Source of the DNA: Halobacteriovoraceae bacterium
GTDB lineage: Bacteria; Bdellovibrionota; Bacteriovoracia; Bacteriovoracales; Bacteriovoracaceae
NCBI GenBank assembly: GCA_963719505.1
Contig: CAVRCF010000001.1
Coordinates: 1,223,754 to 1,287,753 of the forward strand
DNA: 64,000 nt
Direction of reading: 5' to 3'
A program made the translations under genes and the position numbers. Shown here piece by piece: positions 47,229-48,984 of the stretch (position 1 is its first letter; each line of letters opens with the position of its first letter). The notes under the pieces were generated by a model. The model did not search any database and had not been told where the DNA came from. It worked only from the letters and a program-made list of their open reading frames with translations.

Positions 47229-47744
47229 TTATTTTGCAGTAATCATGAAAACAGCTCTTCTGTTTCTTGACCATGACTCTTCGTCGTGACCAAAAGCAGC
47301 TGGTTTTTCTTTACCATAAGAGATGATTGAAACTCTTGCTTCGTTTACGCCAAGAGCAACTAAATAATCTTTTACAGATCTTGCTCTTCTTTCACCTAGA
47401 GCTAAGTTATATTGATGTCCACCTCTTTCATCAGTGTGACCTTCAACTTGAATATCAACTTGAGTATTTTCTTTGAGAAAATTAGCTGCATCTTCTAAAG
47501 TTGTTCTTGCTGCACTTGAAAGTGAAGAAGAATCGTAGTCGAAGTAAATTGTTCTTAGTGGACCAGCAGTGTTTTCGTCACTTGTTCCATTAAGTTCAAG
47601 TGCATAGCTTTGAGCAGCGTCATCAACTAATGAGTCTGATGAACCAGATCCATCTTCTTTTGCTGGGTCAGTTGCACAACCAATGAATGCAAGTGAAGCG
47701 ATTAATAGTAGAGTAGAAAGAGCATTTCTTTTTAAAGTTTTCAT
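47229..47744 (-). CDS. pal: Peptidoglycan-associated lipoprotein Pal
   Basis: Lipobox FIGC; IYFDYDS, VEGHTDERG...YNLALGERRA, SYGKEKP, NRRA. Confidence 0.95.
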   Translation of the reverse strand: MKTLKRNALSTLLLIASLAFIGCATDPAKEDGSGSSDSLVDDAAQSYALELNGTSDENTAGPLRTIYFDYDSSSLSSAARTTLEDAANFLKENTQVDIQVEGHTDERGGHQYNLALGERRARSVKDYLVALGVNEARVSIISYGKEKPAAFGHDEESWSRNRRAVFMITAK

Positions 47745-47985
47745 GTTTCAAAATCCTTTTTTGTTATTAAAACTTTGTCATTAATATTTCGAGTTTAATA
47801 TTATCGCATACTTGTCAGTATTCAAACCTTTAAAAGTTTGGAAAAAGGTGTAGGTTTAAACAAAAGATTGATCTCTTCTTTTTGCGTTGCGTTCTCTGAC
47901 ACCTCGATAACAAAAGAATGACGCTTTATAAATCATCATTTATGTAATTCTATTGGCTTAGCCTTATAATTCTTTTTGAAATAGT

Positions 47986-48001
47986 TGGCACAGTACTTGC
48001 T
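47986..48001 (+). promoter_or_regulatory. Sigma54 (RpoN) -24/-12 promoter
   Basis: TGGCAC-AGTAC-TTGCT, an exact match to TGGCAC-N5-TTGCW. Confidence 0.8.
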
Positions 48002-48011
48002 TATACATAGG

Positions 48012-48107
48012 TGTGTGTGTGTTGGGGTTATAGAAAAAGGATTTTTTTATAACTTCTCCTTATGTCTCTCGAATAAAAAAGCTCGTCTTCCCTGACGGGC
48101 TTTTTTT
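48012..48107 (+). ncRNA. Candidate sigma54-dependent small RNA (~95 nt)
   Basis: Runs from the predicted +1 to an intrinsic terminator; 15-bp internal hairpin with GGA loop; G-U pairs form only on the + strand; no plausible ORF. Confidence 0.65.
48075..48107 (+). terminator. Intrinsic terminator (may also serve the convergent arginase-family gene)
   Basis: AAAAAA-GCTCGTC-TTCCCT-GACGGGC-TTTTTTT. Confidence 0.85.
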
Positions 48108-48126
48108 ATGCCAAAATTCCTAAATA

Positions 48127-48984
48127 CTAATCTAACCAGTGATAAATTAAATGAGCAAGTGTCTTAGCGCCTTGATTAGAAAGGTCATCGTATTTAGGAT
48201 TGTATTCATAAATACCAAAAGCTTTTTTGCATTTCAGTTTTTTTACTTGATCAATAACATCAAAAACTTCCTTTAATCTTACTCCCTTTGAATTGACAGC
48301 ACTTACAGCCCTCATGATTGAACTATCCAGTCCATCAGCATCCAAGCTTAAAAGCACTAATGATTCATCGTTATCGTACTCATGCAGGTCAAGTTCAAGA
48401 TCATCACCTTGAAAAACAATTCTTTGTTTCACTTTTTTTAAGGGGGATAGAGTGCTTTCACTGTTGGCGTATTTGTGAATTCCAAACTGAATAAGTGTTG
48501 TTTGAAGGGCGCAGTCTTCATCAAAGTTTCTAAACGGAGTCCCTGAATGATGAGAAGAATCTATGCGGGTGTCACAATGAGCATCTATATTTATAATGAG
48601 AATTCTTTTGATGTTTTTTAATTTTTGCAAAGAAAGTAAAAGAGGATAAACATGATCGTGTCCACCACCGATGTGAATTAGGTGTTCACAATGGTCAGGC
48701 AAACTTCTTTTTATTTTCTTTGCCTCTTCTTTTTGATTCTCTTCAAAGCTATCTGTAACAGGTGAACTCACCTCGATTTTCCTTATGCCTGTCACTTTAC
48801 TGAGGTGGTTGTTCATTTTAAAAAAGTGAAAACAAAGAGCGCTTGGTCCAAACCTTGCACCGTCTCGACCATTATTGAGTCTCACACCAATATCTGTTGA
48901 AGAGGTTAAGATCATTGTGTTAAAGCTTTCGTCTTCTACTACTTTAGCTCCTACTGATACCAGTTTTCGATTTTCATTTTTCAT
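48127..48984 (-). CDS. Arginase/formimidoylglutamase (HutG-like) family protein
   Basis: D.GV..N.GR.GA..GP, GGGHD, NIDAHCD, SGTPF, SLD.D, E.NP.YD. Confidence 0.85.
   Translation of the reverse strand: MKNENRKLVSVGAKVVEDESFNTMILTSSTDIGVRLNNGRDGARFGPSALCFHFFKMNNHLSKVTGIRKIEVSSPVTDSFEENQKEEAKKIKRSLPDHCEHLIHIGGGHDHVYPLLLSLQKLKNIKRILIINIDAHCDTRIDSSHHSGTPFRNFDEDCALQTTLIQFGIHKYANSESTLSPLKKVKQRIVFQGDDLELDLHEYDNDESLVLLSLDADGLDSSIMRAVSAVNSKGVRLKEVFDVIDQVKKLKCKKAFGIYEYNPKYDDLSNQGAKTLAHLIYHWLD

Follow-up and report, generated by a model that had tools for sequence, protein, structure and literature searches.

The element described here lies in a window of 64,000 nucleotides from the genome of a Halobacteriovoraceae bacterium (GenBank assembly GCA_963719505.1, contig CAVRCF010000001.1), the window being the whole stretch of DNA that was analysed. 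Two genes of the minus strand, one predicted to encode an OmpA/Pal-like protein (pal) and the other a protein of the arginase family, enclose a gap in which a perfect TGGCAC-N5-TTGCT element of the plus strand is followed by a run of GU dinucleotides, a hairpin, a short linker and an intrinsic terminator (Table 1). The preliminary description of this DNA had reported the promoter element on the strand opposite to both flanking genes, a hairpin of 15 bp whose loop is GGA, and a terminator ending in U7, and all of them are present at the positions listed. Comparison with related genomes revealed a predicted gene together with its strand, structure, promoter and enhancer, and the gap between pal and the arginase-family gene very probably represents a stand-alone regulatory RNA gene of about 95 nt, restricted to the family Bacteriovoracaceae and referred to below as the small RNA (sRNA).

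Table 1. Features of the sRNA locus, in window coordinates (ORF, open reading frame).
Feature	Position	Strand	Description
OmpA/Pal-like protein ORF	47229-47744	-	PF00691
Distal enhancer element, degenerate	47884-47901		GCGTTGCGT ... TGACA; TGAC half-site at 47897-47900
Proximal enhancer box	47909-47922		AACAAAAGAATGAC; ~-103 to -90; 2 mismatches to GTCA-N6-TGAC
Sigma-54 promoter	47986-48001	+	TGGCAC-AGTAC-TTGCT, perfect match; GG at 47987-47988, GC at 47999-48000
Predicted sRNA	48011-48107	+	~97 nt; start deduced from promoter geometry, end from the U7 tract
5'-terminal (GU)6, then UGGGG	48011-48022	+	Predicted single-stranded; proposed seed
Hairpin 1	48024-48056	+	GGGGUUAUAGAAAAA-GGA-UUUUUUUAUAACUUC; 15 pairs, three of them G-U
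Hairpin 1 loop	48039-48041 (GGA); 48038-48041 (AGGA)	+	Read from the sequence
UCUCCUU	48055-48061	+	Read from the sequence
Linker word GUCUCUC	48064-48070	+	Predicted single-stranded; near-invariant in the family
Intrinsic terminator	48075-48107	+	A6-GCUCGUC-UUCCCU-GACGGGC-U7; one G-U pair
Arginase-family ORF	48127-48984	-	PF00491, E 3.4e-28; convergent with the sRNA

When the complete spacer was compared with 41 relatives by BLAST, matches were obtained in 12 genomes, each belonging to Bacteriovoracaceae, and the conserved part comprised only window positions ~47976-48109, which hold the promoter and the RNA, the flanks not being conserved. The promoter, the GU run, the AGGA-loop hairpin, the GUCUCUC word and the terminator were present in all 12 matched loci, and the sequence of the terminator stem differed between genera. 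A covariance model (R1), which covers just the RNA, beginning 2 nt ahead of the nominal +1, and leaves out the promoter, matched 115 of 151 family genomes with exactly one copy in each; the matches extended to 50 of 69 genera and to 88 of 110 high-quality genomes. The sRNA of the window's genome, likewise a single copy, scored 104 bits (E 1.3e-19) with this model. In a sample of the phylum, R1 matched 19 of 23 Bacteriovoracaceae genomes and none of 127 genomes from 24 other families. A second model (R2), built from 73 sequences, was run on five near-complete family genomes that lacked an R1 match, where its best score was 28.7 bits and all matches lacked both the promoter and the GU run. With each species represented by one genome, a pattern scan detected at least 119 loci. 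The carriers among the matches listed were Bacteriovoracaceae, Halobacteriovorax (including H. marinus), metagenome-assembled genomes (MAGs) of Bacteriovorax stolpii, and Peredibacter sp. The full promoter-plus-RNA pattern was also present in loci L201 and L202, from MAGs labelled Planctomycetota and Candidatus Saccharibacteria, which are probably mis-binned or mislabelled contigs of Bacteriovoracaceae.

The structure of the RNA was evaluated in an alignment of 73 R1 matches, of which 33 came from the best loci and 40 from the weakest matches, and the counts of members given below refer to this set. Fitting the alignment to the model biases it towards the structure; independent minimum free energy (MFE) folds agreed with it, all 12 sequences folded giving the two hairpins, with the 5' end and the linker unpaired. 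Paired cells amounted to 93.5%, whereas shuffling of columns gave 71.4% and sliding of the partners no more than 67.2%. Changes on both sides were found in 25 of 28 pairs (13 of 15 in hairpin 1 and 12 of 13 in the terminator, which was 96.6% paired), and none of 500 shuffles attained any of the observed measures of pairing or covariation. Conservation and covariation had been proposed earlier as a check on the sRNA, and promoter and hairpins do recur in relatives with these compensatory changes. Because many of the pairs are G-U and would be A-C on the other strand, the plus strand was taken as the RNA strand. This argument had been drawn from four G-U positions of the window's sequence, three in hairpin 1 and one in the terminator, and it holds throughout the family, with G-U at three of the pairs in 35, 29 and 28 sequences.

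Parts outside the stems were nearly invariant in wording. At least four consecutive GU dinucleotides occurred within the first 20 nt in 71 of the 73 members, the loop contained AGGA in all 73 (AAGGAWU in 67), and the linker contained GUCUCU in 72 (GUCUCUC in 64); the mean length of the sRNA was 92 nt. The string UCUCCUU, previously described as anti-Shine-Dalgarno-like, is present in the window, but it lies partly in a stem and is not kept in distant members, the invariant word of the linker being GUCUCU. A simple terminator scan did not list the terminator of the sRNA, which the MFE folds and the covariation do show. The suggested comparison with Rfam identified no family: at E<=10 it returned 26 matches, all sub-threshold and terminator-driven, and the best complete match, MicC, reached 23 bits versus a cut-off of 90. 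No regulatory RNA of Bacteriovorax, Halobacteriovorax or the family was found in the literature searched, and the sRNA is an uncatalogued family.

Allowing up to one mismatch, the window contains a single match to the sigma-54 motif. Shuffled sequences are expected to hold 1.25 such matches per window, and 69 of 100 shuffles contained at least one; the motif alone is not significant, and the finding stands above chance because it is conserved. The genome contains ~40 strict sigma-54 motifs, of which ~31 are intergenic, as read from the table of motifs. Upstream of 72 R1 matches, the strict form TGGCAY-N5-TTGCW was found in 60, a near-consensus form keeping GG-N10-GC in 11, and a form with the GC lost in one, so that a model built without the promoter nevertheless retrieved it in 71 of 72 matches. 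The motif ends 6-13 nt ahead of the model match, and the RNA is therefore predicted to begin at or in the GU run. Four further strict intergenic TGGCAY-N5-TTGCW motifs of the window's genome (G000), at C1:567197(+), C1:774618(-), C4:143993(-) and C4:14128(-), have no ORF start within 400 nt downstream and could mark further sigma-54 sRNA genes. The 16-mer TGGCACCCAACTTGCT is identical at C4:14128(-) and C4:30048(+) of the same genome.

Further upstream, a palindrome of the form GTCA-N6-TGAC was revealed by a scan of the 72 loci (325.8 kb in total, with 14.4 kb in 200-nt upstream regions). The upstream regions held 59 of the 61 exact copies, all 59 located at -160 to -80, and the boxes were usually paired, 31-33 bp apart. 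One or more exact boxes were found in 42 of the 72 loci; with up to one mismatch allowed, 36 of the 72 had two or more. The double box occurred once per genome, at the sRNA gene, in five of five genomes, which suggests an activator with this sRNA as its main or only strong target; no other sigma-54 promoter in the window's genome has the boxes. The distal element of the window is found at the same place and in the same wording in close relatives, and most genera have the full GTCA-N6-TGAC there. An IHF-like site, ATTCAA-N4-TTA, had also been noted at 47820-47832; the string is present, but it lies at ~-190, beyond the enhancer and in unconserved sequence, and it was not counted.

The genome encodes RpoN (206.9 bits) and ~10 enhancer-binding proteins with the Sigma54_activat domain. 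These data, together with the single-copy occurrence across the family, the covariation, the retained promoter and the enhancer, support the earlier proposal of a stand-alone, sigma-54-type RNA of ~95 nt on the plus strand. No activator gene adjoins the sRNA gene in the loci examined, and comparison of the activators with NCBIfam gave sub-cut-off matches only. A FleQ-domain Pfam match of only 21.7 bits was located in the receiver domain of an activator in which no helix-turn-helix was detected. A 525-amino-acid activator was considered as the cognate one and rejected, since its N-domain is kept phylum-wide (35 of 41 genomes) and so does not track the sRNA.

The preliminary description had likened the GU-rich 5' end to the seed of GcvB, which pairs with CA-rich leaders, and this idea gained support from duplex scores and from the co-occurrence of CA leaders with the sRNA. 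The 5' 18 nt were scored against positions -80 to +30 of 3752 start regions (mean -11.2, standard deviation 3.0 kcal/mol). In the window's genome, a gene encoding a ParB_N domain ranked first at -31.0 kcal/mol, with 17 contiguous pairs at -60 to -41, followed by rpoN at -25.2 kcal/mol, with a site in the lptB-rpoN spacer. In the same genome, seven of the 15 CA runs of at least 9 nt were found just upstream of starts in sense orientation, in the leaders of smc, scpA, the ParB_N gene and four ORFs of no assigned family, while 8-nt CA runs precede mutS and rpoN. CACACA occurred there 40 times at -60 to 0, compared to 13 times for its reverse complement. The genes mutS and lptB-rpoN lie ~2 kb apart on opposite strands (G000 C3:331627-337680), an arrangement also found in several relatives, and in G000 both have CA leaders.

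The same association was observed across the family. The ParB_N gene was present in 82 of the 115 genomes with the sRNA, compared to 5 of the 36 without it, and in 19 of 38 loci, which represent at least 10 genera, a CA run of 7 nt or longer stood in its leader. When each sRNA was paired with the ParB_N leader of its own genome, 11 of 15 genomes gave -17 kcal/mol or lower, and in G022, G019 and G000 a CUCC beside the CA run pairs with GGAG/GGGG of the sRNA. From five other RNA-bearing genomes 36 CA-run sites (CACACACAC) were fetched, 33 of them from four; 15 of those 33 precede ORFs, all in the four genomes, and nine of the 15 are DNA genes, encoding thymidine kinase, ParB_N, NrdB (twice), a Xer-like recombinase, ThyA, DnaE, MutS and DnaA. 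Genomes with the sRNA contained 49 CA runs in ~17 Mb versus 10 in ~14 Mb for five genomes without it, where none of the 10 precedes a DNA gene. Similarly, a CA run was found in the mutS leader in 4 of 10 genomes with the sRNA and in 0 of 9 without. The CA site of rpoN was absent from 24 genomes without the sRNA, and rpoN was ruled out as a universal target because this site occurs in only 5 of 50 RNA-bearing genomes; it is a lineage-specific target at most.

Some observations were made beside these leaders. A conserved 114-amino-acid protein without Pfam family (G000 C3:276641-276985; G074 L344) has a CA-run leader in two distant genera and is a further candidate member of the CA-leader set. 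The ParB_N leaders of genera g11, g75 and g66 (L384-L396) share a conserved (A)TGACAA ~60-70 nt upstream of the start; together with a TTAGTT-like -10 element, it would give a short leader that opens with the CA run. Two ACACAATATGTAG-like palindromes, which we take to resemble NrdR boxes, are located at G000 C3:78815-78964, upstream of an nrdB-like ORF (ribonucleotide-reductase small subunit), and in two other genera this gene has a CA run in its leader instead.

According to the proposed model, sigma-54 polymerase would transcribe the sRNA when an enhancer-binding protein sits on the dedicated enhancer, which in most genera consists of two GTCA-N6-TGAC palindromes 31-33 bp apart, ~90-140 bp upstream. 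The RNA is predicted to comprise an unpaired (GU)5-6, a long A/U-rich hairpin with the AGGA loop, the unpaired GUCUCUC and the intrinsic terminator. Its 5' (GU)n, often together with the following GGRG, would pair with (CA)n leaders, often of the form CYCC-ACACAC, 5-60 nt upstream of starts, and such pairing would lower translation by covering either the site of ribosome loading or a translation enhancer rich in C and A. It would operate without Hfq: PF17209 matched none of 25 genomes, including the window's own (83.5% complete), and did match control genomes. We lean modestly towards this mechanism. The putative targets are mainly genes for DNA replication, repair and segregation, namely ParB_N as the best-conserved candidate, mutS, dnaE, dnaA, nrdB, thyA, tdk, smc and scpA, and the lptB-rpoN spacer may be an extra target in the window's genus and one neighbouring genus. 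We infer the dependence on sigma-54 in vivo, the targets, the sign of the regulation and the signal, and we read the leaders as the mark of a flexible regulon of replication and segregation genes, each (CA)n being able to pair with the invariant seed.

Through the sRNA, the predator's replication programme would be coupled to a sigma-54 signal. A broader proposal, tentative and rather doubtful, is that in Bacteriovoracaceae it may serve as a master switch that controls, at the post-transcriptional level, how chromosomes are replicated and segregated, and that its (GU)n would act on the (CA)n of dnaA, dnaE, nrdB, thyA, tdk, mutS, smc/scpA and the co-inherited ParB-like gene, holding off or licensing these functions between the non-replicating attack phase and growth inside prey, with feedback on rpoN in the window's genus. 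The sRNA is conserved in a lineage in which Hfq was not found among the 25 genomes searched, and it bears on how obligate predators turn replication on and off. The gene is well defined and can be searched for with a covariance model, and its promoter, together with an enhancer that is unique in the genome, points to a dedicated sigma-54 activator. The predicted regulon is unusual, a simple (CA)n leader marks it, and cultured carriers exist (Halobacteriovorax marinus, Peredibacter and others).

Several points weigh against this interpretation. The start and end of the transcript and its expression are deduced from the DNA sequence, and the enhancer boxes are degenerate in the window's own clade. 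Chance complementarity is common for a low-complexity seed: dinucleotide-preserving shuffles equalled the energy of the ParB_N duplex in 2-18 of 200 trials in most genomes, and 4 of the 15 genomes showed nothing in this test. The ParB_N leaders of two genera that possess the sRNA lack a CA run altogether (g75, 0 of 6 loci; g66, 0 of 3). The CA-leader set turns over even within a genus, as seen for mutS, and among the 50 RNA-bearing genomes checked the CA site of rpoN is confined to 5 genomes of 2 genera. Pairing with CA leaders leaves the AGGA loop and the GUCUCUC word unexplained, and the CA runs might instead be used by a protein, or function as enhancers, without involvement of the sRNA. 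In addition, ORFs were called crudely as the longest ones, related genomes are not independent, and the genomes that lack the sRNA as well as CA leaders or ParB_N may represent few clades.

The most probable of the alternatives is a base-pairing sRNA with another main seed or other targets, in which, for example, the GUCUCUC linker or the loop pairs with purine-rich GAGAGAC or ribosome-binding sequences and the CA leaders are unrelated. The linker word is as invariant as the GU run and unpaired in the folds, and the missing ParB_N leaders in two RNA-bearing genera and the quick turnover of the CA-target sets point in the same direction. Against it, neither GAGAGAC, alone or with CA runs, nor sites complementary to the loop defined a coherent gene set in the window's genome, the duplex energies of the linker had no outliers among the top genes there, and CA leaders and sRNA co-occur across genomes. 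This alternative is judged unlikely.

A second alternative, still less probable, is that the RNA is real but protein-binding, the AGGA loop and, in many members, a second GGA/GGAG at the base of the stem binding CsrA so as to titrate or deliver it, with another role for the GU run. CsrA binds by preference to GGA presented in a hairpin loop, the AGGA of the loop is present in every member and usually extended to AAGGAWU, and CsrA is encoded in the genome. On the other side, the number of GGA per RNA is one (25 members), two (36) or three (12), far fewer than in sponges of the CsrB/RsmZ type, and only one lies in the loop; in the window's genome the second GGA reads GGGG. Moreover, csrA is part of a flagellin-csrA-fliW cluster (G000 C1:256312-258601, L085), and in clusters of this type the antagonist of CsrA is the FliW protein, not an RNA. 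No CsrB/Rsm match was obtained in Rfam at E<=10, and CsrA binding leaves the invariant (GU)n unexplained. That a looped GGA binds CsrA had been noted earlier, but a role as CsrA sponge appears weak. The cluster itself represents a CsrA module of the partner-switch type, here in a diderm predator.

It is highly improbable that there is no independent RNA, the promoter being fortuitous or of other use, the terminator belonging to the arginase-family gene and the hairpin being incidental. The promoter motif alone is expected by chance, as described above, and the terminator, bidirectional in form and located 20 nt beyond the stop codon of the arginase-family gene, is common to this convergent gene and the sRNA. 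Yet promoter, GU run, hairpin, linker and terminator are co-conserved, with covariation, in the 115 genomes matched, they persist in 25 of 73 loci with a different neighbour, the G-U pairs fit the plus strand only, and a unique enhancer is present. The chance that the transcript instead encodes a tiny peptide (AUG at 48062, M-S-L-E-stop) is negligible: AUGUCUCU occurs in 55 of 73 members, but the other 18 lack it (those read have ACG, UUG or another base), frame length and the residues after MSL vary with the terminator sequence, and no ribosome-binding site lies at a suitable distance.

Genomic context analyses of the 73 loci showed that the arginase-family gene is the most constant neighbour of the sRNA, being directly downstream and convergent in 48 loci and present in the locus in 55; in the remaining 25 the sRNA persists without this gene directly downstream. 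A gene for a GYF_2 protein follows in 55 loci, and pal is the upstream neighbour in only 30. The best NCBIfam match of the arginase-family protein was hutG (TIGR01227), at 125 bits and below the cut-off of 229. In four loci the arginase-family gene is replaced by a gene for formiminotransferase-cyclodeaminase, located directly downstream in L079, L077 and L046 and further down in L053. This enzyme would represent an alternative route for formiminoglutamate, which suggests displacement in place within a histidine-degradation context.

The predicted sRNA shares features with several known systems. The Qrr RNAs of Vibrio are described, in the excerpts consulted, as sRNAs governed by LuxO and sigma-54 (PMC3730234; bioRxiv 10.1101/2021.07.01.450815). 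Like them, the present RNA is short and terminator-ended, with a sigma-54-type promoter and, by prediction, a dedicated enhancer-binding protein, here apparently with very few other sites. It differs in having no Rfam Qrr match at E<=10, a single copy instead of one to five, another enhancer word and another seed, and in that Hfq and an adjoining activator gene were not found here.

GcvB is reported, in the portion of the source available, to silence ACA motifs that enhance translation and are located immediately ahead of the Shine-Dalgarno sequence (PMC3879156); it offers a precedent for repression through the masking of a C/A-rich region beside that sequence. Both RNAs have a G/U-rich single-stranded seed and, by prediction in the present case, address C/A-rich elements upstream of the ribosome-binding sites of many mRNAs. 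However, no Rfam GcvB match was obtained, and the seed here occupies the extreme 5' terminus and consists entirely of a repeated dinucleotide. The sigma-54-type promoter, the failure to find Hfq and a predicted regulon of DNA metabolism instead of amino-acid transport also set the present RNA apart.

GlmY and GlmZ of Enterobacteriaceae are sigma-54-dependent and controlled by GlrR (QseF), an activator of the response-regulator type that acts on repeated palindromic TGTC...GACA-like sites. The likeness consists in a sigma-54-type sRNA with repeated palindromic upstream sites, whereas no Rfam match was found, the spacing here is GTCA-N6-TGAC, there is no link to glmS, and GlmY works by protein mimicry.

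As for the enhancer, the consensus of the FleQ box is given as GTCaNTAAAtTGAC for Pseudomonas and GTCAaAAAAtTGAC for P. putida, and the excerpt consulted calls the Pseudomonas consensus unreliable genome-wide (PMC6120874). Boxes of the present family, for example GTCATAAATATGAC and GTCATAAAAATGAC, share with that Pseudomonas consensus, so far as the excerpt gives it, the GTCA-N6-TGAC form and an A/T-rich centre; no FleQ orthologue was established here, the sole Pfam FleQ-domain match being the one described above.

Finally, EcpR1 of Sinorhizobium meliloti is a trans-acting sRNA proposed, in the part of the report available, to adjust how replication is initiated and how the cell cycle proceeds (PMC4414408). 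It is unrelated to the present sRNA in sequence and lineage, and the regulon considered here is predicted only and defined by the shared (CA)n leader; as far as that part of the report describes it, EcpR1 nonetheless comes closest as an earlier example of an sRNA directed at replication genes.

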